Assembly: GCA_903813345.2 (NCBI GenBank)
Contig: CAIIXF020000001.1
Coordinates: 8,866,001-8,930,000, forward strand
Length of the DNA: 64,000 nucleotides
Source: Owenia fusiformis
Lineage: Eukaryota
Direction of reading: 5' to 3'
Shown: positions 9,162 through 64,000 of the stretch, piece after piece
Numbering within the stretch: position 1 is the stretch's first letter
Layout: each line of letters opens with the position of its first letter
Notes under the pieces: model-generated
What the model saw: the letters and a program-made list of their open reading frames with translations, nothing else
What the model was told of the DNA's origin: nothing
Databases searched by the model: none
Program-made: the position numbers and the translations under genes

Positions 9162-12100
9162 TCATACTATGAAGTCAGATCCTTTGTTGAGATTATTAAG
9201 GCTATCTACACCACTGTCCAACCCATTGTCTGATGGTGTCGTGGTTGTGTCACTGGCAGCCTCTCTGGTACCATTCTCTATTAAAACCACTACAAGGTCA
9301 CTAAGACCTTTTTTGGGTGTACCTGCTGGGGTACCTAAATCATATTTATACTTTCTCCAGAACTTCTGGATCTTCTTTGCAGCATTGATCTCAACCTGTC
9401 GGTTCAACGTAGTGCTTATCTGCTCATACCCTTCTACATCAGGGACTATTACAGGAACATCTTCTATGTTATCTAGCTCAATCTCCCCTGTGCCAAGATA
9501 GTCCTTTGTTAATGCATCTAGGATGTCCTTGCAGTACACTCTATCCTCTGTACATATTGGAATATTCAGTGTTACCACTTTATAAAAGTTTGGAATGGGT
9601 TTGCGTAAAGGTTCATCTAAAGCATCTACAAAGTCACAGAGCTGATCTAAATGTATAAAGTGAGTGGCTTCTGGGTCAAACTTTTCCCATGTCTCATAGT
9701 AAAGATCAAAATCCTCGCCAGTTAATCCTTTCTGAACATCCTCAGTTGCTTGGCTGAAATTCTCCAGAATAACAGCAATGTACATATTCACAATTACAAG
9801 AAAGTTCAAAATAAGATAGCTGAGGAGATAAGCTACAGCCATTCCACGATTTCCACAATTAGGTGGTACACCATCAATTTCCTCTGTTGTACAGTCCTCT
9901 TCGTTTCCGATCCCTTCTAGGATTGAATTCCAACCTGCTGAAGTGGAAATTTGGAATAGAATTACCATCCCATTCCCCATTGTCTGGAAGTTGAATATTT
10001 CATCAATTCCCGCATGATACTTGACGTGCATGAAAAAGTTCATACCAAATATGGAATATATGAACATAACTAAGAAAAGTAGTAATCCAATGTTGATTAA
10101 AGCAGGTAAGGATACAAGTAGCGAGAATAATAAAGTCCTTATTCCTTTAGCTCCCTTTACTAGACGCAGGACACGACCTACACGGGCTATACGCACTACT
10201 CTTAATAATGTTGGGGAGACGAAGTACTTGGCGATTATATCAGCAAGAAACAAAGCTGAAATACAGAAATAAATAATTAAAATGATGTTATGTATAACAT
10301 ATCTTAGAGTGTGCAATTTTAGAATTTATACCATTTCATAATAATTAATAATGATTCTCTTTAACAAGATATACACATTGTCTTGTCAATGGATTTTTTC
10401 TTGGATTTAAAAATCATAAGTAGCTAATGCTATGCCTACCTAAAATTGACACAATAACAATGATGAAGTCAAATACATTCCAAGGGCTTTTAAAATAGTG
10501 CTGCCTTAGTCCAAACAATTTCAGCACACACTCCATGGTAAATACCACGATGAAGACTGCGTTGATCCAGTAGAGAATGTTGGAGTAAGAATCTGGCTGG
10601 TCATAGTATTCGCATGCCATCAGAACCATGTTTAACATGATGATGGCCATAATTGCGATGTCAAATTTCTGATCCATTACAAAGTCAAATATAGCAGCTT
10701 GGGGTCTCCACTGAAATGAACAATAAAGTGTTTATAATACATTATTGTTGATTGAAAATAAGGTGCTTAGATACTTTAAAACAACCCATTTGCTAATATT
10801 ATGATTAATTTTGTTGTATCTTTGAATTTATAATGATTTATTAATTGTTATTTGACTTATTTTCACTTCAAAATATGCTTTCCATGGTAGCTAATTAGGA
10901 AAATATCAGATATTACACCATGAACAAAATGCAAGTAGTATGCATTCTAAAGGTGAAATGTATGTGTTATCTTCAGATGCAGAGTGTAAAAATATGTACC
11001 TTAGGTCTTGGAACAGGTTTCTGTGGTTTTTGGGAGCCCATCTTTTTCATGGCCTGGTAATACCTCCTTTGCTCCTCTGTCATGAAGATCTCCATTCCTC
11101 CTTCGTACAAAAACAAAAGCAACAGTAAGGATCTAACCAACATAAAATGCAGCAGCATGGTTGGTTGATTGATAGAACATGTATTTAGGCTACATCAAAA
11201 CATGCTTGTTTTTTGTGAGAGTGTTTTAATAGTCTATGAGTTGATAGAATTAATGTCATCATATAATATATTGATATTATGATATTACCTCATATTACAG
11301 TGTACAAGGTTTACCGTTTAGCAGTTTAACATTGGTAAACTTTTAATTTATTAATTTCATGAGAGCAAAATGATATCTAATTATATTTAGTCTTTAGAAA
11401 AATAACCAACATGCTTTTAATGGTGTCATAAAAATGTTAATATAATGCAGCAAAATGTCTAGGTTATTTTCTACGCTATGAAAGTATTTCAATCTTAAAT
11501 TTTAAAAAATGCTTAACTTCTTTGAAAACTGATTTGTTTGAATTATTTAAAGGAAGAAAATAATTGTTCATTGGTGCGTTCTACCTGGTTGTCACTCTAA
11601 GATCTTGTTTGAATGGGATATGAATGAAATCAATCCATCTGTACAGGACAACTATTCAGAATAAAGGAGGATAACGTTTTTTATTCTCAATTGTCGATAC
11701 CTGACACAATGGCTTCTGAGGCAATCATAATGTTTATGTAGAAGGTGTTGCTTTTATATTTTGTCATTTCTTGGTCAGTGGGGTAATGTATGATGATCTC
11801 ATATCCTGATTGTTTCAATCTTTTTTATTAATCATTTTGGTCTCCTTAAGTTATGATTGATAGAATACAATTTTCAGAATTAACAAAAAAACACTTGCTT
11901 CGGTTTCAGCAACTTTAACATTTTGGAATCACTTTGGAAGTTTACCTTCATTTTATAATTATGTGCAAAATAATTTGATTAGTAGAAATAAAATCATAGT
12001 ATAGCGCTACCCTAATGCAAGCAAACTTAACTTGCTTTCAGATCCATACTGTATTTTCATTTTAAGCATGAAGGGGTTTCCCTGGAATACTAGGAATAAA

Positions 12101-21100: not shown

Positions 21101-24100
21101 ATTAAATCCATATTTGAAAGGCAACATACCTTCATTCCCTCCCATCTTGATACTGCCCTAAGAGGCCTTAATGCACGTAAGGTTCTAAGTGCCTTGAATG
21201 CACCTATCTTTCCTGCTCCTATCATCTCTGCTACTAAGCCAACTATGGATATCTGAAAAACATTGATTTGCATTAACAGAAATATACTCCTCAAAAATAT
21301 TTAAGGACCAGTCTTTTTCCTCATGTCTGTTTGACCTCTTATTTTCAAAGCCTGAAACAAAAGAAAAACTGATAATGTAAATGGATATGTACCTTGACTC
21401 TATTCTCTGTATTTCAGAAAATTTGGGTTGGGTTGCCAAAAGTCATATAAGAAAATATCAATCAATTTCAATTGCTCTCAAAAATGGAATGTAAATAGAC
21501 AATTGAATTTGCTAACTGTCTACAACAAAAATTGATTTGTTTCTCCAGGTTTTACAAAGTTATGAGTCTCAAAAGTCAATATCATTTCTCATAAAACCTC
21601 TCATTGAAATAACACAGGGTGTCAAAATGAGTTGTCAAAAATATGTTGATGCTCTATATCGGTAATTCTCACAAAGTAAGCTTAACAAAAAGCATGCTCA
21701 AAGTAAAACAATTCAATTGTCTACTCAGAAATTAGTTTTGATAAATGTTTTTACCGAATACATATCCAAAAATCTGATTTGCCCCTAACCCACCATTTCC
21801 CATTGGTTAACATGGGTTCTGCAATTTTTTTGAAATTCCTCAACTTTGACATCAATTGTTGACCGGACCTATTGTAATAGAGAGATTAAATTGAAAAATC
21901 CCTGAAATATAGAGAATAGGGTCAAGGTACATATCCATTTACATTATCAGTTTTTCTTTGGTTTCAGGCTTAGAAAATAAAGTTTAAAGATACATAAGGT
22001 TTAACATGTAAACCTTAACTTTTTTTAAGGAGTATATTGTTGCGTTTCTTTAAAGTTTTTAGTCATCCTTCCCTTTTGGCATTTGTGCTTATATATTCAT
22101 TGATATTGTACTACTTGATTTTTTTAGTTCGCTAAAATGTTCTTTTTTCTTTGTTAATTTTTTACCCTCTGTGTTTCTGAATGTAATGTTGAAGTATTTC
22201 AAATCAAATGTTTTCAATATATATATTTAGTACATACTGCTACAATAACAAAGTCCAACCAGCACCAGGCATCAGTGAAGTACTTCTTGTAGCCATAAGC
22301 GACCCACTTGAGTAACATCTCAAGAATGAATATGATAGTGAAAATTTTGTCCATTATATAAAGAGTGGTTTGTAGCCAGGGCCTATTAACTAGATGTATA
22401 TCTTCAATTGCCTGGAATAAAGATATTTATTATGCAATTAATGCATACTGTACATTTAATAACATTTAATGCTATAACATAAAATATAGAGCAAGGATGT
22501 CCATTTGAAAATTAATATTGCTTGCAAGAGTAAAATTCTTTTAGATTTTGAAGGGGTTATCTTATATGAACAAGTGGTTATGTGCATGCACTATTGAGTC
22601 AAATCTTTTCTAGGTGTTGTAATATGTTGAATTCTTTATGCTTTGAATCCAAATTTATACAGGTTTTACACAAACACATCAAGAATACTCACCAAAGCTA
22701 GACTGGATAGTAAAATCATAACAATGATAAATGTTTCAAAGTAATTGTTTTCAACCAGCCAGTAAGAGAACACACGTGCCTTCCAGTATTTCTGACCGAT
22801 TGGAGTTGATGTGCATGTTTGACAAAATATAAATTTGTCATAACAACCAGGACACCAGCAATCAAATGGGTCTTTGTCCTCTTCTATCTCTGTTTCTTCC
22901 TTGTTAGTGCCATCAGCCTCATCATCTGTCTTAAGTTTAGTATCCTCATTAACCGACAGATCATTAGAAGTATTATCTCCATCATGTTTAGAATCAGAAC
23001 CATCTTCAATTTCAATTTTTGTTGACTTCTCAGATACTCTATCTATATCATTTTGCATAGCCTCATTGTTTTCATCATCTATTGCTATTGCATGTTTGTT
23101 TTGCATAATGATTCCATTTACATCATTCAAGCTTTTCTGTGAAGAGCTTTTGTCTCTGCTCTGTGGAAGCAGTGTTTTTGTGTCTTCATTTCCATCTGTT
23201 TCAATTTCACTAGATTTTAAAGACTTTGTCGGACTTTTATGTCCATTTGTTCCATTCTCAATACACTCATTATCACTAGCACCATCTGGGTCACCCCTCT
23301 CTAATCCATTCATCTCAATAGTTTCACTTCTCAATGCCTTCACATTGTTTGGTTCTCTTTTCAATATTAACACACATATACTATACATAATACCATATTT
23401 TATTTTTGAGCCAACCCATTTAAACCTGTCGATGGCTTCAGCTATTTTATTTGGTTCATCATCATCATCATCTTGTTTTTGCAAACTGTCTGCTCCGAAT
23501 GAGCTCAGTAACAAAGCCAGAAACAGATTCAGCACCTAAAATAAAATGATAAGGTTGTTCTAAAGCTCCAATTACAAAAAGGCCAATGTTTCACATAGGA
23601 ATTTTGAAATATCCCAAGATTCAGTTTTAACATGGTCTGTGATTAAGAAAATGTTGATGTGTTCTTTTATATTACTACTTTTTATCTAGTTTGTGTAGTA
23701 ATGTGAATGTAACTCTTTTATAGAGGCAAATGAATTATACGTACATCCTACATAAACATTCAAATAGTTTGTCTATCAATTAACTTATTTTATTATTTGT
23801 TTGGTACTCATCTTATAATTAGATGCAATGTCTTACCACTAGATTTCCTAATATGACTGTCAGCATAAAGAATGGCACACACATTGCACCAGCTACGATC
23901 ATGCAATCCCACATTGATTCTATCCATTCCCCACACAAAACACGGAACACAATCATAAATGAGTGGAAGAAGTCATGCATATGCCAACGGGGCTTTTGAT
24001 CTAAGCCTAGGCGATGGTAGTTCAGTTCGTAATATTGTCCAAACAACTGCATTCCCATGACAGCAAATATGAAGATAAGAATTCCAACAACAAAGGTCAA

Positions 24101-52500: not shown

Positions 52501-54011
52501 ATGGTGTGCATGAATAGACCTGTGTATTTTATACCAAATAGAGACACTTCCCTGAAGAGTTCTAAATCTCTATATGTTAACAACCTCGTTGACTTTGCTT
52601 CCATATTTCCTGTGAAGCCGTGGAACAGTTCTCTTGTTCTTCACAATTTTCCATTTTAATGTAACTCAATGAATAAGGCCAATTCATATCACTGGCTTCC
52701 CTAGGTCATTTGAATTCCTTGCAATTTTTAAATCAGCAATAAAGAATAATGGGTTAAATTATCAAATAATGAAAAAGTTGCAAATTATGAGATTTGTTAT
52801 ATAGCTTCGAAATCTTGCTGAAGTGTAGTTTAACTATAGGTTACCAGGCTAAATTCTCATTGAGATAATTTTAAAGAATCTTAAACATTGACTTATTGTT
52901 TCAGTGGTCCTATTAAAGTTCATGTGTACACAATCTGAACAACATCCAGTTTCAAACACTTCTGATTATCATCAAGTTTCAAACACAATCTGAACATCAT
53001 CAAATTCAATGCAAATGCAGTTTTACTTTAATCCAACAGAACGAATATGGTAAATCAATAGACTAAGTGACACATGTCAAGTCAATGGTAAATACTTGTA
53101 TCTAGCCCAACTAGCACAAGTGCTGCCATCTACCGACTAGTATCAATCCATCTATCCATATACATAGCACCTAATGAGGTCACGACTTCAAGTAAAGCTT
53201 TTTCCCTTGTCTATGGTAAAAAATAAGTTAAACAGAAAAGTTAGTTTGACACCATTGGTGATGCCCACCTTGTATGGTATAGGGATAAAAGGAAAGTTCA
53301 TGATAACACTTACATAAAATAATTTAATTATCTAATAATGATAATGAACATATTACAATGTTACACAATGTTAGTAAATGATAATTAAATGTCAATTATT
53401 GTTAGTGTAATATGTATTTTTTGCTTAATGCTGCAACAATTACACAAGTTCCAAAAAGTGCCACGCCCACTTTTCCCTAAAAGTAGTTGTGTGTGACTAT
53501 ATTTGATAGATATTATTGATTTATTGGAGCATTATATCAACTTTTTAGTGCTTTAGTGTGAATATATACATATTTATACAACTTTTGACAAAGTTGCAGC
53601 CACAAAATCCAAACAAATTTGCAAATATTTCACTTTGAGGGCTAAGGGACATATTTTGGAGGAGGTCAAATTGAGAAGATTTTGAGATATAAATACTGTT
53701 TCCATGGTAACCATATAAGTTAGAGATTGGACATTTCTGGCACTGACTAACCATGGTATGCTCTGCCTACTATAAAACTATGAATATATGACATGCATTA
53801 GTATTCTTTTTATAAGGTGGTATTAAAGTACCCCCAAGGTTTTCTTAGGGTGGGGGTATGAATTGGCCTGAGGGCCGTCTGCCACCCCTACATGAAGTCC
53901 AACTACCCAGAAAGTGCCTAGCATAATCATACAGACTGTTTGAAATATGTTGGAATGTGTGACCTTCCATGAAAAATGGAAGTTGCAATTATCAGAGTAG
54001 TCCACAGTCTA
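49513..54011. mobile_element. Academ-like non-autonomous element with ~730-bp TIRs and 3-bp TSD (CTA)
   Basis: cta|TAGACTGCGGACTA ... TAGTCCACAGTCTA|cta; ~49513-50250 is mirrored by ~53290-54011. Confidence 0.75.
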
Positions 54012-54989
54012 CTATTTAATTCTAGACAAACACATTTCGATCAACTAAACATGCTACTATTCAAGAAAGTACAAATGGCATCTTTTTGACTTGTATTTAT
54101 TACAGTCCGAGATCCAGAAGATCTTTCCTGACGAAAAGCCCACATTATGAAACACCTTGTACGTTTACCTATAAGTATAAATATACGTTATAACACTGTG
54201 TTATAAGTTGTACTTTCACTAGGTGCGAAATCTCTCTAATATAACATAACATATATCTTTTTGTCGATAAACTGGAAGTAATGTTTTTGAGTCGAGAGAT
54301 GAGTGATAATGCTTAGTTACAATGTTTTCACCCAGAGACTAAATGACTTCATATTTATTCATGATACCATATTGATAACATGCCGCTGTATTGTGTCATT
54401 GCGAATTCTCTTGAAGATCTATACACCTTCAGAAGAAAATAAACTTAAGAATGTGTTAACATCAATGATACATCTTGAGTTATCAATTTCATTCAAACAC
54501 GAGAATACATAGTTGTCGATTTTGGAGGTCGACACTTTTCAGATTGATTTATATAAATGTAACAAATATTTGTTCAAACAGTTCTTCACCATATACTAAA
54601 AATAAATCCGAAAAGTTAATCTTTAAACCTTGAAACACTGATTTAAGATTTTTATTATCTATTAAGTAGCTTCTAGAGCTCTGTACCTGAATTAATCAGT
54701 TATTCCACAATTTGACATGGATTAAAAAAATATGCGAATGACGCTATATTGTATCTGTACTATAAAGCAAAAAGAAGTCAGTTTTCAAAACTGATATTCA
54801 GCAAAGCACGATACATGTAGATGTCGATATATACAACTTGTATATGTCTAAGTGCCACGTAGTTTGTCGGACTATCAATATTAGCGAAATATAGAGGTAC
54901 AGTTCCAAAGAGGAAAAAATATTAGGCGAGGTATCGTACTTCCGTTACATTGAACTTCCAATTTGAATTTGCAAGATCCTGATATAACC

Positions 54990-57900
54990 ATGGCTTCAGA
55001 TCAAAAGGGACTTGAACGAGATATAAAAGATGTGTTAAAAAGATGCGATGGAAGTGAATTGAAAAGATTCCTTCATAATTCATCAACCCAACCAAAGTGT
55101 CCAAAGGACATCATAGTATGGGCATTTAGGAACAATGTCAGGTTGACCAGAAAAATCATTCAAATCTTAGTGGAATATGGAACAGATGTCAACGCCAAAT
55201 ACGAAAGGTCTGATATGTTCTCACCAGATGATGGAAAGACTTCATTGATGTATGCTGTAGAGAAGAAGAATGTGGAATGTTGTCGCGCTTTAATAGATCA
55301 TGGTGCTGACGTTAATGCCAGTGACGAGGATGGGAAGACTTCATTGATGTATGCTGTAGAGAAGGAGAATGTGGAATGTTGTCGTGCATTGATAGATCAT
55401 GGTGCTGACGTTAATGCCAGTGACGAGGATGGGAAGACTTCATTGATGTTTGCTGTAGAGAAGGAGAATGTGGAATGTTGTCGCGCTCTGATAGATCATG
55501 ATGCGGACGTTAATGCCAGTTACAGATATGGGAAGACTGCATTGGTGCATGCTGGAGAGAAGGAGAATGTGGAATGTTGTCGCGCTCTGATAGATCATGG
55601 TGCTGACGTTAATGCCAGTGACATGTATGAGAAGACTGCATTGATGTATGCTGTAGAGAAGGAGAATGTGGAATGTTGTCGGGCTCTGATAGATCATGGC
55701 GCTGACGTTAATGCCTGTGACAGATATGGGAAGACTGCATTGATGTATGCTGTGGAGAAGGAGAATGTGGAATGTTGTCGCGCTCTGATAGATCATGGTG
55801 CTGGCGTTAATGCCAGTGATATGTATGAGAAGACTGCATTAATGTATGCTGTAGAGAAGGAGAATGTGGAATGTTGTCGGGCTCTGATAGATCATGGTGC
55901 TGACGTTAATGCCAGTGACAGATATGGGAAAACTGCATTGATGTATGCTGTTGAGAGAGAGAATGTGGAATGTTGTCGCGCTCTGATGGATCATGGTGCT
56001 GACGTTAATGCCAGTGACATGTATAAGAATACTGCATTGATATATGCTGTAGAGAAGGAGAATGTGGAATGTTGCCGCACTCTGGTGGATCATGGTGCTG
56101 ACGTTAATGTCAGTGACATTTATGGGAAGACTGCATTGATGCATGCTGTACAGAAGGAGAATGTGGAATGTTGTCGGGTTCTGATAGATCATGGTGCAGA
56201 CGTTAATGCCAATTACATGTATGGGATGACTGCATTGCTGCATGCTGTAGAGAAGGAGAATGTGGAGTGTTGTCGGGCTCTGATAGATCATGGTGCGGAC
56301 GTTAATGCCAGTTACATGTATGGGGAGACTGCATTGATGCATGCTGTAGCGAACGAGAATGTGGAATGTTGTCGGGCTCTGATAGATCATGGTGCTGACG
56401 TTAATGCCAGTGACAGATATGGGAAAACTGCATTGATGCATGCTGTAGAGAACGAGAATGTGGAATGTTGTCAAGCTCTTATAGATCATGGTGCGAAGGT
56501 TAATACCAGTGACAAGGATGGGATGACTGCATTGATATATGCTGTAGAGAATGAGAATGTGGAGTGTTGTCGGGCTCTGCTGAGTCATGATGCGGACGTT
56601 AATGCCAGTTACAGATATGGGAAGACTGCATTGATGTATGCTGTAGAGAAGGAGAATGTGGAATGTTGTCGCGCTCTGATGGATCATGGTACTGACGTTA
56701 ATGCCAGTGACATGTATGAGGAGACTGCATTGATGTATGCTGTAGAGAAGGAGAATGTGGAATGTTGTCGCGCCCTGATAGATCATGGTGCTAGCGTGAA
56801 TTCCAGTGATATGTATACGAAGACTGCATTGATGTTAGCTGTAGAGAAGGAGAATGTGGAATGTTGTCGTACTCTGATGGATCATGGTGATGACGTTAAT
56901 GCCAGTGACAAATATGGGAATACTGCATTGGTGCATGCTGTAGAGAAGGAGAATGTGGAATGTTGTCGCGCTCTGATGGATCATGGTGCGGACGTTAATG
57001 CCAGTGACATATATGGGAATACTGCATTGGTGCATGCTGTAGAGAAGGAGAATGTGGAATGTTGTCGCGCTCTGATGGATCATGGTGCGGACATTAATGC
57101 CAGTTACAGCTATGGAAAGACTGCATTGATGTATGCTGTAGAGAAGGAGAATGTGGCATGTTGTCGTGCTCTGATAGATCATGGTTCGGACGTTAATGTC
57201 AGTGACGAGAATAGGAAGACTGCATTGATGTATGCTGTAGAGAAGGAGAATGTGGAATGTTGTCGCGTTCTGATGGATCATGGTGCGAACGTTAATGACA
57301 GTGACATGTATGGGATGACTGCATTGATGCAAGCTGTAGAGAAGGAGAATGTGGAGTGTTGTCGTGCTCTGATAGATCATGGTGCGGACGTCAATGCCAG
57401 TGACAAGAATGGAAAGACTTCATTGATGTATGCCATAGAAAATGACTGTGTGGAATGTTGGCGGTTTTTGATAGATCATAATGCTGATCAAGGTGGTAAT
57501 CTACTGCTTTATCCAATAGCAAACACAACTGGAAATTACATAGAACTTTACTACAGCCTAACCATATTAGCTGGCATGGTTGACAAAAGTTACAAAACTC
57601 TGTTTCAGATAAATCAAAATGCAAATATAGATCAACAATACGCAGCTAGAAAGCAATTGGATAATTTCTATAAGAATTCAAAACTCTCTCTACGTCGAAG
57701 AGCAAGGCATTCTGTCAAACTTATTCGAAATAAATACGGTTACAAAAATATTATCGACGATTTAGTTGACAGTGGGTACCTACCATCAAAGATGAAACCC
57801 TTTATGCTATTTGAGGAAGACATCAAGGAGATAAAGACCATTCTTACAGAGCTACATAACTGTCATATCAAGGAATCCGAAGCCATTACTGCTTCAGGTA

Positions 57901-60900
57901 TGTTGCTCCATATATTATTATGTGCTTTATTATACTTGTACCCCACATTTGGGCAAAGTGTACAGCTTAAACAGAAAAAATGAAAAAGCTTAACTAATTA
58001 TCTATATATTATATTAACTAATCAAAGGGTGCTTGATCATTGCAAGATTTTATTGGATGTATTTCGTGTTTTTTTTTCTCTCGATAAAAATATTAAATAG
58101 AAACATTAATTTATGTTTCACGTTATTCATGTTTTCTAAATTTTGACAGTGTTTTTTTTTATTTTATCCATGTAACTTGACCGAACATCTTTAACTTATT
58201 GCATTCTAATAGGAAATGGCATTCTGAACCGGTTTTCTTGTTACACATTAAACATTTTCTTTCTTCAATAGGGGTAATTGGTTTTGTGTAACGACCTGTT
58301 TCGATTTCTAATTTATGTGCGCTAATTCTTAGCTTTGTCAAGTTATTTCTGTCTATTTCATTTTTGATTAAATCCGAGTAGGGTTCCTTGTTCCATTTTG
58401 CTTTTATTATCTTATAAAACCTCAATTTACCATTATTTGATTTTATTTCAAATTGTATGTATCTATTTTCCAGTAATTTCTTAATTTCTCTTGGTTTTAA
58501 GTTTAAATAGTTTGGTGAAGTACCATTGTAAATATATTTAAGTACATCATTGATGTGCGAGAGCCATGATTGTTTATTCATATCTGTCAGATGTTTATTT
58601 ACCTTCATAAGAACATTTTATTTACCTTTATAAGAACATTTCGTCAAAAAGGAAATCACATAAGCACACCGGAATAGCCTGACAACGGTAAAGTCAGATA
58701 CCGTTGTCACAAATGGCGGACATAACTGTCGCTTTAACTCTCCAATCACTTGGTCCTCGTTTCATGGGACTTTATTGTCGCTAATTCTGTGCATGTATTA
58801 AGCTCTTGTGATATGAAATCCCAACTTCGATCAAATTGTGGAGTGAATCGCCACAATATAGCGTCTTCGATATCGTCAATGACAACGGAATCTGAATTTA
58901 CCATATGCTGTTGTCTTGTAAAATTTCTCAAATTTAGATTGCGATATACCAAATTTCCTGAAAAATCAAAACCTTTATTTTACTGATATTCATTGATCTT
59001 TCATGTAATATCACTTTCGGAAAATCGCTTTAAATTAATATCTGATAGTGAAAGATGACACTGGATAATCTGCATTATTCACTCGTACATTCAGAGCTAT
59101 ATTTTCTGTGGCACACAATAAGCTTACGTAAATTGGTTTATGCAATGATAAACTCCTTAGTGCTAATATATAGGCTAACCAAATGCCTGCAGGGGGAGGG
59201 GTCAAACAAACTAGAGTAAAATTCTGACATACAAAAAATGATTTATGGAACATCTCTTAAATTGTTGACCTACTTCTTTCAAAACAATACTTTTTTGATA
59301 CTACCACATTAATATGTATTAAAGATGTAATATAAAGTTTGTAAAATCCTGACATATTCTACTTTAAACCATTCATTTTACCAATGATGATCGTTAGATA
59401 TTTGGATGAACGCCATAATTTCAAACATATTGGGACCTTTCAGTTTTGAGTTAACAGCAATATATTGTTTTCATATTTAGAACGTGAGACACGAGAAATG
59501 CAAGAGAAAAGTATCAAAAATAGTGAACCAAAACAAAGAAGTGAGCATCATACAAAAATGGAGGCTTTTGAAATTCAAACAAATGATACTCCGAGCGAGG
59601 AACGTACAAGAGCAAACAAGAAGCTGACAAATGAGGGTATTGGATCTGCAACCAAAAGAGATGAATGTCAAGCAGATGAGGACGGGAAATTAACAAAACT
59701 GAGAAAAACAGAAACTGATGGCCACATGATTTCTCAAACCACCGACAAATCTACAAAAGATCTACGAAAAGAGATGGTTGATTTGCCAGTTGATTCCTCT
59801 CCTCGTCAAGGAAATCCTACGGATAAGAAACCTTATGACGAACTACTTCCGTGTGCAGAAAAATTACTGAGGAAGTATGTTTAATATGCTTTTTCCTCCA
59901 ATAATTTTAGCATTTGTAATTTTCAGAACTATTTCAAACTCCATCAAGTAGGATAATAAAATCAAACATTCTTAGAATAACAAAAATTTTAATACCGCAT
60001 GTTGCTATTAACATACGGGTGAAACATATGGATACAAATCGACCTCATTCTTTATGTAAATAATGAAAATAACAGTTTCCTCCGATGAAAGTTCATCGAT
60101 TTTGCTATAAAGACACAACGTCAAGGGTTTAGATAATATATGATTGAAACTTTTACGAATCAAAATAAAAATTGGGAAGTATATATAATTATCCAGAGAA
60201 GGGTGGAAATAATTATTCCACCCTTATGTTATTGTGATTAATTTATAGATAAAATGAATTTTTATAGGATTCCAGTGGTGAAGGGCTATGGAATGCGGGA
60301 AGATGGCTACTTCACAATTCACATCGTTGATGGTTATGTGAAGAAAACATCACGCTACATCAAAAAGCATATACCTGGGTACAAATTCAATTTTGTGCCA
60401 TGGATGAAAGGGGAGCGTATTCACTTGCTCGGATGTACTGGGGCATCACTCAAAAGTAGGGTGATAGATAGAGCGGAGTTCGATTCGATTGGAACTCTCG
60501 GTGGACTTGTTGCAACTAATACAGTAAATGGTGTCGAACATGTGTATGCTGCAACAGCCAATCACGTTGTAGACATTAATATTCTTGAAGAGGATCAAAA
60601 CCAAAATACCAAAACCGAACAAAACAAAATAGAATTCATGACTTGGTCGAAAGATGATGAGTCTGATATACGTTCAATAGGTACTGAAGTTCCATACAAT
60701 ATACCACTAAAGTTGGAGGAGCGTGAAAGTGAGGACGAATGGGTTATTTTCAAAGACAGTACTGACGATGACAACGACGCCGTATCTGAAGACAGTCTTG
60801 AAGATGGCTTTACCGACGATAGTGATACTACTGATGATGAAAATGCGAAAGATTGTGTATCAGCACAATATGATATTGCACTTGTATTAATAGATGAAAA

Positions 60901-62224
60901 GCACAAAGACTTGGTAGATCAATGCAAACCATGTCATGAATGTTGTTCGACCATCTCATCGACCAACAAAGATATTCTTACAAAAGGAAAAGTTGTAAAA
61001 CTGGGATTTTCAAAAAGTCTGAACAAAGGGAAAATAAAGTGTTTAAAATATGCAGGAGAAATCGAAATCAATAACAAAACAGCATGGTGCTCTAATTTAG
61101 TTATTATCGGTTCTGTGCTGTCGAGCGAATACTTCAGTGAAGAAGGAGATAGTGGCACAATAGTAGAGATTCAGTATGATTCCACCATTGGAGATCACAG
61201 CCCGGATTGCTTCATGATTTTTGCGGGATGGGAAAAGGAATGCAGTTGGAATACCTGGAAATGTCCCGTGTCTGTAGCTTTTAATCTCAAGCCTGCTCTG
61301 GAGAAATTGAGTGAACAATTAAATAACGACGGTGAGACTGAAAAGATGTTTAGATTGTCATGTTGTAAACATGTCACATCAGCCTCTATTTCAATACAAG
61401 CAGATAACGAGCCTGGCGAGGTGGTAAACAAAAGCAACTCATCATCTCAGTCGTCAATAAATGAAATAGAAACGGATCTGGACTGCGCATCGGGAACAAT
61501 TTGCAAAAATAATGAAGCCTCACTTCATACAAAAGCTGAGCAGTGTACTGACAAGCGTCGACAGAAACTGTCACCAAGCATGATTCATGTGTCTCGAGAT
61601 GATGTGACGGAGATTAATTTCTGTGGCGATCGCTCAGCCGACACAACTAAAGGCGGTATGTACGAGTAGCCATAACTAATGCCTTGGTCACATTTGCTCC
61701 TATCCATCGGCCGGCGCCCGGCCGATTGAGTGTTTTGCTCAATATTGTATTCTATTTTGAACAAAATACTCAATCGGCCGGGCGCCGTCGTGAAAATCGG
61801 AGCAAATGTGACCAAGGCATTAGTGTATTCTATTCTAAGAAGGCTATGTTTAAACATAAGCTATTTACAGGTAATTTTAATTGATACTTCATTTCTGCTG
61901 GTTTTGCCCCCAACCTTTTTATCCTTGTTGATTTAAAATCTAACCTTGCTAATTTGTCATCAGTGTAACCATGCATAAACAAACGCAAATAATATTTAAC
62001 TACCTTAGTTAATAACTCCAATCTCTTAACCCTATATATTTATCCATTCACACTTAGGGGTGGAAAAAGCAGACATCAATGCTGAAGATGTTCTGGCTGG
62101 AAATGAAACATCAACTGAGGAACTTCCTGTACCAACGAAAGAATGTGATAGTTTGACGATCCTGGCTGGCATTTTTATATTTATATCGGTTTTCCTCATC
62201 TTGCCTTGTTGGTTTTGCTTGTAG
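54990..62224 (+). CDS. Ankyrin repeat / SOCS-box-like / trypsin-fold serine protease / C-terminal transmembrane protein; exons 54990-57897, 59481-59874, 60268-61655, 62058-62224 (1618 aa)
   Basis: accATGG start; three GT-AG introns with matching phases (1, 2, 1) join three ORF-track ORFs and a short terminal exon into one 4857-nt frame. 23 ankyrin units; SLRRRAR...LPSKMKPFML; GTLGGLV, ATANHVV, YDIALV, GDSGT; ends LTILAGIFIFISVFLILPCWFCL*. Confidence 0.82.
55229..57490 (+). repeat. Coding tandem array of 23 x 99-bp ankyrin repeats
   Basis: 33-aa unit GKTALMYAVEKENVECCRALIDHGADVNASDxY with high nucleotide identity between units, all within one exon. Confidence 0.97.
58159..58608 (-). mobile_element. 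LINE ORF2 C-terminal fragment in intron 1 of the ankyrin-protease gene
   Basis: KLRFYKIIK...LTKLRISAHKLEIETGRY...ERKCLMC...SECHFLLEC. Confidence 0.85.
58665..58905. mobile_element. Partial copy of the MITE at 6797-7302
   Basis: cacaccggaatagcctgacaacggtaaagtcagataccgttgtcacaaatggcggacataac... aligns with 6797-7040. Confidence 0.8.
61676..61824. mobile_element. ~150-bp palindromic MITE (Harbinger-like)
   Basis: actaatgccttggtcacatttgctcc...ggagcaaatgtgaccaaggcattagt, with an inner cgcccggccgattgagt / actcaatcggccgggcg stem. Confidence 0.75.
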
Positions 62225-64000
62225 TTGAGAAAATCAGGTACAACTACTTTGTATTTAGACTTCAAATTCACTAAACATTTTTTATCTGGGGGCATTTGGA
62301 ACTTAGTCACAGATCGTTTTATTATTTTGTTGAAAATGTAGAACTTGTATTTTGCTTGTAATTATGAAAACATAATGTCACGTTATTATATTCTTCATCA
62401 TTTCTTGCCATGGAGTCAACACACTGTGAAGAATTGAATCCCGACTTTGAGAAAAATATTTAATTTTGAGGATACCTAATGGACAGGTATTGTATTGTAT
62501 TGTATTGTATTGTATATTCTTTATTTCCTCCATTAAATGAAGATTACAATTTAACATTTTAACTTAACTCAAAATTAAGGACAAATAAAATAATAATNNN
62601 NNNNNNNNNNNNNNNNNNNNNNNNNNNNNNNNNNNNNNNNNNNNNNNNNNNNNNNNNNNNNNNNNNNNNNNNNNNNNNNNNNNNNNNNNNNNNNNNNNNN
62701 NNNNNNNNNNNNNNNNNNNNNNNNNNNNNNNNNNNNNNNNNNNNNNNNNNNNNNNNNNNNNNNNNNNNNNNNNNNNNNNNNNNNNNNNNNNNNNNNNNNN
62801 NNNNNNNNNNNNNNNNNNNNNNNNNNNNNNNNNNNNNNNNNNNNNNNNNNNNNNNNNNNNNNNNNNNNNNNNNNNNNNNNNNNNNNNNNNNNNNNNNNNN
62901 NNNNNNNNNNNNNNNNNNNNNNNNNNNNNNNNNNNNNNNNNNNNNNNNNNNNNNNNNNNNNNNNNNNNNNNNNNNNNNNNNNNNNNNNNNNNNNNNNNNN
63001 NNNNNNNNNNNNNNNNNNNNNNNNNNNNNNNNNNNNNNNNNNNNNNNNNNNNNNNNNNNNNNNNNNNNNNNNNNNNNNNNNNNNNNNNNNNNNNNNNAAT
63101 GCAATTATGTGGATGAAGAAGTTCATATAGTGGGCAACATTGAAAATTACTCCTGGAACACTTCTGAAACAACCCATTTCACTATTTAAGTCTCATATTC
63201 CCATTGTGTTCACTAGGGCTCAAATTTAGAAACTCTCAGAAGTCGGCTTTGTAAAAATCACATAGACTACTTTCACGGATGATGAGAATTGGTTTGATAT
63301 TTGAAGCGAGGTTAATTTGGGTTGGCAGAAACATTTGATCTTACTCTGTGTCTGATTCCCAAGGCAAACGTTAACGTAAGCAATGTGTAAAAAATTATAT
63401 CTAAGAAAACTGTTGTAAAAATGGTGCTCAATGATACGGTTGAAGATACAACAACCCAACCATTCATGATTGCTACTTTAAAAACAACTCAAATGACGTT
63501 AGTGCTCATGGGGATGAAGTAGATGACCCCAAGGGCGTTAGTGTACATGTCTCTAAAGCTGGCCCTATTTATGAACATGCTAAACTAGGAGTAGTCCTGG
63601 GTACCCCAATTGTCGGAGCCTAGTACGTGTAAACGAAGCTCTCTCGAAGCAAAATGAAATTATTGAAATGGCAAGTTCTGGATGTAAGACGATTAAAAAA
63701 ATTCAATTGTAGGTGATCTCATCATGTGATATCTTACTTAAAGTCTACAAGTAAATTACAGGATATCCGTCCATACAGATAGCTATTCTAGATTAGAAGC
63801 CCTGGTGTAAATATACATCTTAGAAACCCATCAATATTTCAGGATGAAGCACGAAAAAGTTGCATTATGTGTCTTAGGATTGATATTGGGCGTCTGGGGA
63901 AATACAAGGTGACATTTTTCTTAACTCAGCATCTCAATTACAAATGTTTACGGGGAATGGGTTTTGCTGAATTCAATAAGGTGTCACGAGAGAGACGCTT

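Follow-up and report, generated by a model that had tools for sequence, protein, structure and literature searches.

An internally amplified ankyrin array joined to a predicted Nal1-like protease in the annelid Owenia fusiformis

Does a long ankyrin array with a nearly fixed framework and a changeable face amount to a diversifying binding surface? The question is raised by a plus-strand gene of Owenia fusiformis, found in a window of 64,000 nucleotides (assembly GCA_903813345.2, contig CAIIXF020000001.1, positions 8,866,001 to 8,930,000 of the forward strand; coordinates below count from the first letter of this window). A sequence-only reading of this DNA had described a homogenised array of 99-bp ankyrin units whose variation is focused on the ligand-binding face, at the sites randomised in designed ankyrin repeat proteins (DARPins), and had likened it to fungal repeat receptors in which unequal exchange could generate new specificities. 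The analysis presented here indicates that the gene is best called an internally amplified animal ankyrin recognition array fused to a Nal1-like protease, in a family seen in one annelid. The focus of variation is real; an excess of amino acid change at the surface was not found.

The repeat array itself is confirmed. Tandem Repeats Finder reports one tandem array at 55231-57487 (period 99, 22.8 copies, 88% matches, 0% indels, score 3259), and reading in frame from 55230 yields 23 ankyrin units of 33 amino acids (99 bp each) at 55230-57506, inside a single open frame (ATG at 54990, stop at 57983). Pfam marks 22 Ank stretches (PF00023; E=1.7e-180, 574.6 bits against a cut-off of 21.1) and Ank_2 (PF12796; E=3.3e-210, 681.9 bits), both above the gathering score, and the units align gap-free with DARPin and ankyrin-1 chains. 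The 23 units that had been proposed are thus borne out, and the array had been placed correctly, with a start that was one base off the frame, a trivial difference. A degenerate capping ankyrin unit lies directly before the array (55131-55229), and the array closes with the divergent unit 23 (57408-57506), which has 62-70% nucleotide identity to the others.

The units are alike without being copies. Across all 23 units, pairwise nucleotide identity is 86%; among units 1-22 it is 88%, with values from 77% to 97%, and even the closest pair, at 97%, is not identical. At the amino acid level, units 1-22 are 78% identical to one another and 0.866 identical to their consensus over 726 amino acids. 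Seven positions carry the same residue in 23/23 units (T4, L6, A9, V15, C17, L21 and H24) and several more do so in 21-22 of 23, making "nearly invariant framework" a fair if inexact description. A Cys-Cys pair at codons 17 and 18 is found in nearly every unit, with 47 cysteines among the 759 residues of 55230-57506; it occupies the core Ile-Val site of DARPin helix 2 and is uncommon for ankyrin repeats. Three antisense open reading frames (118, 315 and 181 amino acids) also pass through the array on the minus strand at 55440-57380, and are probably by-products of a repeat unit lacking stops in that frame, not genes.

Differences between the units fall on a limited set of positions. Every variant listed by the sequence-only reading is present: 11 hairpin triplets (DED, YRY, DMY, DRY, DIY, YMY, DKD, DKY, YSY, DEN and DKN), the 9 pairs that follow them (GK, EK, KN, GM, GE, EE, TK, GN and RK) and 8 helix-1 pairs (MY, MF, VH, IY, MH, LH, ML and MQ). 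The most variable codons are 33, 8, 2, 3, 30, 20 and 22. In the gap-free alignment, codons 33, 1 and 3 fall on the three hairpin sites at which DARPin modules differ from one another, and all three vary here, codon 33 most. The other three DARPin-variable positions, codons 11 and 12 at the end of helix 1 and codon 31 in the last loop, are rather conserved in the array; codons 7 and 8 vary instead, replacing the H and L of the TPLH motif, and helix geometry would place them one turn below codons 11 and 12 on helix 1. Codons 20, 22, 27 and 30, in helix 2 and the loop, also vary, mostly through conservative changes, which at codons 20 and 22 are hydrophobic exchanges within helix 2. The proposed match to the DARPin-randomised sites therefore holds for codons 33, 1 and 3, but not for 11, 12 and 31, and it leaves out the changes in helix 2. 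More broadly, the array resembles DARPins (6mol_A, 5lel_A) in its gap-free 33-residue units (E down to 1.8e-90), near-constant scaffold and varying hairpin codons; it further differs from them in having paired cysteines in place of helix-2 core hydrophobics and in being a natural protein with 23 units.

Changes were counted by Fitch parsimony on a tree of units 1-22, giving 77 non-synonymous and 38 synonymous changes. The seven codons of the sequence-only reading (32, 33, 1, 2, 3, 7 and 8) take 38.5 of the 77 non-synonymous changes, against 17.9 expected from the number of sites (p=5e-7). As that set is a post hoc choice, the DARPin-equivalent codons (33, 1, 3, 11, 12 and 31), chosen a priori, provide the fairer comparison; they take 27.5 of the 77 changes against 15.6 expected (p=8e-4). 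Because both sets are enriched, the concentration of variation is real, and the claim of a focus is borne out.

Whether this focus reflects selection is a separate matter. A non-synonymous excess at the surface sites had been set beforehand as the test of the proposal, and it was not observed: with expectations scaled to synonymous change across the whole array, the seven surface codons show 38.5 non-synonymous changes against 34.3 expected (ratio 1.12, p=0.29), and the framework shows 38.5 against 113.7 (ratio 0.34). Codon 33 stands highest, with 9.5 changes against 5.0 expected (ratio 1.89, uncorrected p=0.07), and no single codon is significant after correction for multiple tests. Pairwise Nei-Gojobori estimates give a non-synonymous to synonymous ratio (omega) of ~0.6 overall, 0.8 at the seven codons and 0.4 in the remainder, at a synonymous divergence (dS) of ~0.2. 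In maximum-likelihood site models, omega is 0.49 under M0. M1a is a great improvement on M0 (twice the log-likelihood difference = 35), dividing the codons into 54% with omega 0.12 and 46% with omega 1, and M2a assigns omega 2.5 to 5% of codons at a gain over M1a of 1.1 (p=0.57); its posterior for omega>1 is 0.76 at codon 33 and 0.57 at codon 30. Because non-synonymous and synonymous rates are about equal at the surface, the framework ratio is 0.34 and M2a adds nothing, the data fit a scaffold under purifying selection and a surface drifting at a near-neutral rate, with adaptive diversification unproven. Any young ankyrin array would show this combination of scaffold constraint and drift, and for that reason a fixed framework with a variable face should not by itself be taken for a natural binder library.

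The similarity of the units has a comparable explanation. Codon 19 encodes Arg in 22/23 units but is spelled in three ways (CGC in 11, CGG in 7, CGT in 4), with 9 synonymous changes against 1 non-synonymous change; codon 26 is GCT in 11 units and GCG in 8. Given such synonymous turnover inside an invariant framework, the units must have had time to diverge, and purifying selection accounts for much of their sameness. The term "homogenised" is apt only in part, given a dS of ~0.2 and a framework that is kept by purifying selection. There are signs, though modest ones, of later duplication or exchange. The closest pairs include the neighbouring units 1/2 (95%) and 18/19 (96%); a two-unit period extends across units 4-8 (4/6 94%, 5/7 97%, 6/8 93%); units 4/18 and 11/22 are best partners at a distance; 36% of informative site pairs are incompatible; and the pairwise homoplasy index (PHI) is significant at window 3 (p=0.002).

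The array is part of exon 1 of a predicted three-exon gene. The spliced model (54990-57897 / 59481-59874 / 60268-61669) forms one open frame of 1567 amino acids with GT-AG at both introns, and its product would begin with an N-cap and the 23 ankyrin units, continue through a conserved helical tail and a probably disordered linker, and then carry a Nal1-like serine protease of the trypsin fold. The model is colinear with two of seven O. fusiformis paralogues: with P0002 over residues 812-1018 (E 7e-33) and 1042-1320 (E 9e-63), and with P0007 over residues 1173-1467 (E 3e-37). The ATG at 54990 is probably the true start, because an in-frame stop lies 13 codons upstream of it and the N-terminus aligns with P0007 from residue 1 (E=2e-14).

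Coding exon 1 (54990-57897) ends at the donor G/GTATGT at 57897/57898. It holds the start codon and an N-terminal stretch of 80 amino acids that includes the capping unit (54990-55229; aligned with P0007, and matching no separate Pfam family), then the array, then a degenerate C-cap followed by the conserved tail domain of ~100 amino acids (57507-57897; delimited from seven homologues and their alignments). Intron 1 (57898-59480, GT..AG) was placed from its splice sites and from colinearity with the homologues. Coding exon 2 (59481-59874), placed from its splice sites and colinearity with P0002, encodes a charged, probably disordered linker ending ...ELLPCAEKLLRK, which has no Pfam match. After intron 2 (59875-60267, GTATGT..AG, from its splice sites), coding exon 3 (60268-61669, stop TAG at 61667-61669) would encode a small conserved pre-domain, the Nal1-like serine peptidase and a low-complexity C-terminus. 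Pfam searches of exons 1-3 and the tail returned no NACHT, NB-ARC or other non-ankyrin family above cut-off.

Exon 3 carries the elements expected of a PA-clan protease: putative catalytic residues in the order His, Asp, Ser and a GDSG-type serine motif. The His (TANHVV, 60563-60565) is found in 3/3 paralogues that cover the site (P0001, P0002 and P0007). These three also keep the DIA of the Asp motif (YDIAL, 60872-60874), and the Ser motif (GDSG, 61151-61153) reads GDSG in P0001 and GDGG in P0007. In a Foldseek comparison of the protease model, ranks 1-34 are all rice NARROW LEAF 1 (NAL1) chains (listed E 8.7e-7 to 2.9e-3), followed by bacterial chymotrypsin-type proteases; 33 matches have E<=0.001 and the best probability is 1.00. 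The nearest atlas clusters score 0.94-0.96, with Peptidase_S64 on 15% of members, Nal1_C on 16-19% and Trypsin on 13-14%, and P0007 matches Nal1_C in Pfam at E=0.14, below the cut-off. No longer relatives of the protease were found among 7235 candidates, a weak negative, since the known longer relative P0001 was missed. With moderate confidence, the domain is predicted to be a Nal1/Ssy5-like trypsin-fold serine protease. It shares with rice NAL1 and yeast Ssy5 (S64) the H-D-S order, the GDSG motif, the best fold and atlas matches and an intracellular setting, and differs from them in being fused with 24 ankyrin repeats and a tail of its own and in a long acidic insert between His and Asp. PMC12012508 reports NAL1 to be a cage-forming protease.

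Between array and protease lies the tail, which defines the family. A search of 1.84 billion representative proteins returned seven relatives of the tail (E 9.6e-27 to 8.9e-5), and a word-index search among proteins of 548-1745 amino acids returned none. Because 7/7 relatives are O. fusiformis records, the tail family is detectable only in this species; the contigs that carry them have five different lengths. The motif region reads K-L-S-L-x-x-x-A-R ... L-I-D-x-G-x-L-P ... F-M-L-F, and six alignment columns are invariant (query residues L45, R52, Y64, L71, G75 and P78).

The tail alignment also shows S-L-x-x-x-A-x-x-x-(V/L/I) and, ~32 residues on, L-P-x-x-hydrophobic-x-x-F, motifs resembling the BC-box and Cul5-box consensus. 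They raise the possibility of an ASB-type ubiquitin-ligase receptor, in which the tail would be a divergent SOCS box, the array would select substrates for a cullin-RING ligase and the protease would be an added or regulated module. The two atlas clusters nearest the tail (scores 0.86 and 0.84; 125 and 152 amino acids; mostly mollusc) have SOCS_box on 81-82% of members, and lower rows are named ASB17 and ASB1; atlas scores below 0.9 are leads only, and this comparison shared just 131 features. Direct searches for a SOCS box argue the other way. The tail has no Pfam match and SOCS_box (PF07525) is not reported for it at E<=10, nor for the seven paralogues at E<=1. Against the PDB, the full alignment finds ankyrin chains only, and a profile of the eight tails alone finds seven chance-level matches (E >= 0.16), with no SOCS-box chain at E<=10. 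Foldseek with the low-confidence tail model gives nothing below E = 2.5 and no SOCS box. A C-terminal SOCS box of the kind that marks ASB proteins was therefore found neither by profile nor by fold, the fold comparison being made on a poor model. The likeness to ASB proteins is that a short helical domain comes straight after an ankyrin array, with the motifs and the atlas as a lead only; the differences are the unconfirmed SOCS box and a further protease or Death module after the tail. The array also has far more repeats than ASB proteins are known to carry. Weighing these points, we regard an ASB-type receptor as possible but doubtful.

The paralogues (CAH1800198, CAH1792470, CAH1801484, CAH1801994/5, CAH1784784 and CAH1789620) keep the tail and carry different ankyrin arrays. 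In P0003, the tail is followed by a Death domain in the protease's place (E=3.4e-4, 21.1 bits, just under the Pfam cut-off of 22.6). P0001 combines 15 units of a different, 34-residue ankyrin repeat with a protease and two tail copies, the latter separated by two ankyrin repeats; its array varies at the hairpin and at positions 12-14, and its units 9 and 11 are identical, which points to a recent multi-unit duplication. No NOD (nucleotide-binding oligomerization domain) was found by Pfam in the seven paralogues.

These arrays also bear on how the present one arose. Its units are 78% alike among themselves against 41% (30-52%) to 14 P0001 units, which are in turn 78% alike among themselves; the single visible unit of P0002, the closest paralogue, has 14-20 of 31 residues in common with units 1-22; and outside proteins are 25-41% identical to the array (best 120 of 6498 scoring). 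Because the units are far more alike internally than to P0001, P0002 or outside proteins, amplification appears to have happened inside this gene.

We consider it probable that the array, with a constrained scaffold and tip and groove residues that change almost neutrally, binds the targets of a cytosolic multidomain protein restricted to this lineage. The array would have grown by tandem duplication of the 99-bp unit inside the gene, after which some units would have been duplicated again or have exchanged sequence. Purifying selection would hold the scaffold; the hairpin tips and the groove-facing residues of helix 1 would change at a near-neutral rate, so that the surface patches lining one long groove would differ from repeat to repeat. 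The hydrophilic N-terminus would place the protein in the cytosol, and the union of varying ankyrin tips with a protease suggests a recognition protein. The array would most likely bring a partner or substrate to the protease, or sense a ligand that controls it, and an immune or cell-death type role would fit.

Several results weigh against this account. For the protease, the AlphaFold model is poor (mean pLDDT, the predicted local distance difference test score, 43), the NAL1 fold matches have low TM-scores (template modelling scores, 0.23-0.32) and rest partly on sequence-like 3Di signals, exon 3 has no significant Pfam match, in which it also departs from NAL1 and Ssy5, and phmmer finds no match in the PDB. 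The tail model is likewise poor (mean pLDDT 55). With 22 sequences of 33 codons from a single allele, the site models have little power; their tree is poorly resolved, and they take no account of recombination. For exchange between units, PHI gives p=0.14 at window 5 and is only weakly significant at window 8 (p=0.03), and identity between units stays flat, at 0.87-0.89 however far apart they lie. Because PHI is inconsistent across windows and identity is flat, the case for ongoing exchange is not made, and a single old burst with drift after it is a possible history; unequal exchange, as the sequence-only reading had proposed it, is plausible but only weakly indicated.

The integrity of the array was considered from the reads. 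The read evidence consists of short-read contigs, none of which spans the array, and depth within the array is inflated by contigs that map to many units. DNA run X1 has contigs identical to the window over 55011-55260 and 56076-56275; an X1 contig at 57404-57659 overlaps the 3' end of the array with 9 differences, and across the tail and exons 2-3 each X1 contig shows 0-9 differences. Alternative contig joins occur inside the array (e.g. 55459 to 55867 and 55751 to 57106). That the number or order of units was mis-assembled, or that the array is a recent functionless expansion in a dying gene, is very improbable. Short contigs that cannot span the array and the alternative joins are what such a view could draw on, but the joins are mostly out of the 99-bp register, as expected of graph artefacts or paralogues, the X1 matches agree with the array at the places given, and all 23 units differ (maximum 97% identity), so that long reads can order them. 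Decay is at odds with an uninterrupted frame of 2.9 kb that takes in the array and its two flanks, whereas at one other offset every unit has stops, and with a framework omega of 0.34-0.4 accompanied by synonymous turnover. Nine single-base differences cluster within 96 bp of tail coding sequence (57531-57626) in the only X1 contig there, and neighbouring X1 contigs such as 59219-60272 have zero differences; the cluster may represent a divergent allele at this locus. In three runs guessed to be RNA, exon 3 has depth 0-6 from pieces that are 90-95% alike, and 59379-59860 has zero depth. Among the 15 joints listed of 67, none crosses either intron, which says nothing on splicing or expression.

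A different reading of the same units is a sensor in the style of fungal NOD-like receptors (NLRs), in which hairpin and groove would be under diversifying selection and units would be reshuffled by unequal crossing-over and gene conversion. The passages of Dyrka et al. 2014 (PMC4986451) drawn on here define high internal conservation (HIC) in fungal NLR repeats as similarity to consensus >= 0.85 over >= 100 amino acids, and the array reaches this number with 0.866 identity to consensus over 726 amino acids, its pairwise identity being only 78%. Like the HIC repeats of Podospora het-e, het-d and nwd, it is a long tandem array of one repeat type more than 0.85 identical to its consensus, with a variable hairpin or loop and inner helix, an attached effector and paralogue arrays amplified independently, the second of which varies at the hairpin and positions 12-14. 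The enrichment of variable sites at a-priori binding positions (p=8e-4) and the scores of codon 33 (9.5 against 5.0 expected, posterior 0.76) and codon 30 (posterior 0.57) point the same way, as do the Death and protease effectors, which match marine-invertebrate immune and apoptosis expansions with ankyrin sensors in the part of PMC8195603 considered. On selection the likeness is not borne out: the tests, of low power, gave no significant sign of positive selection (M2a against M1a p=0.57; surface ratio 1.12, p=0.29; no codon survives correction), and with units ~0.2 dS apart neither rapid recent homogenisation nor recent concerted evolution is evident. The comparison with fungal NLRs also fails on architecture, since Pfam finds no NACHT or NB-ARC in any of the three exons, the host is an animal and the effector lies C-terminal to the repeats. 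We hold a fungal-NLR-style sensor to be rather unlikely.

A bolder proposal would join these elements: annelid-restricted, NOD-less intracellular receptors whose private arrays are amplified and exchanged, whose hairpin and groove carry specificity for foreign or altered-self proteins, and whose SOCS-box-like tail relays binding to a Nal1/Ssy5-type protease or a Death domain. We judge this unlikely as it stands. Were it true, the family would be an animal counterpart of the fungal HIC-repeat receptors on a different chassis. Comparable material exists in marine invertebrates, for which Kaur, Iyer, Burroughs, Aravind 2021 (PMC8195603, in the passages considered) describe lineage-specific expansions that combine ankyrin sensors with modules of the Death or peptidase kind. 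The present family resembles those Death/TRADD-N expansions in being species-restricted, in combining ankyrin with Death or peptidase modules and in its sensor-effector logic; it differs from them in that no TRADD-N or STAND module was found and that the tail is seen only in O. fusiformis. The passages of that paper on these expansions do not describe this tail-bearing family (PMC8195603).

The surroundings of the array contain further features. The window has ~35% G+C and three N gaps, all outside the gene, and Rfam has no family at gathering score in 54000-62597. Intron 1 contains, on the minus strand at 58159-58608, an open reading frame of 149 amino acids that has no Pfam match and a contig depth of ~1e4; its style (a ...RISAHKLEIETGRY... 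segment, then a Cys-rich motif) resembles the C-terminal part of retrotransposon reading frames. The same intron has a very high-copy repeat at 58656-58896 (summed contig depth 7e4-5e5 in all four runs). Starting 6 bp past the gene's stop codon is a 150-bp hairpin element (61675-61824) with 71-nt arms that are 85% complementary and separated by 8 nt; its words are extremely abundant in all four runs (summed depth ~1e5-7e5), and it looks like a foldback repeat or one of the type of miniature inverted-repeat transposable elements. Elsewhere in the window, a voltage-gated sodium-channel-type gene lies on the minus strand, with large exons at 9162-10325 and 22666-23535 and Pfam matches to Ion_trans (E=3.4e-36), GPHH/IQ and Na_trans_assoc (E=7.3e-14).

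Amplified repeats with variable binding faces are a known fungal route to fast receptor evolution. In animals, internally amplified arrays are rare, at 0.8% of metazoan ANK, TPR and WD repeat proteins in the part of PMC4986451 drawn on here, and a literature search found no description of this family or of an animal HIC ankyrin array under selection. In the undescribed, species-restricted family considered here, such arrays are linked either with an intracellular protease of plant or yeast type or with a Death domain. Should the array turn out to be polymorphic and its surface under selection, the family would make the diversification of repeat-based receptors that lack a NOD tractable in an animal.

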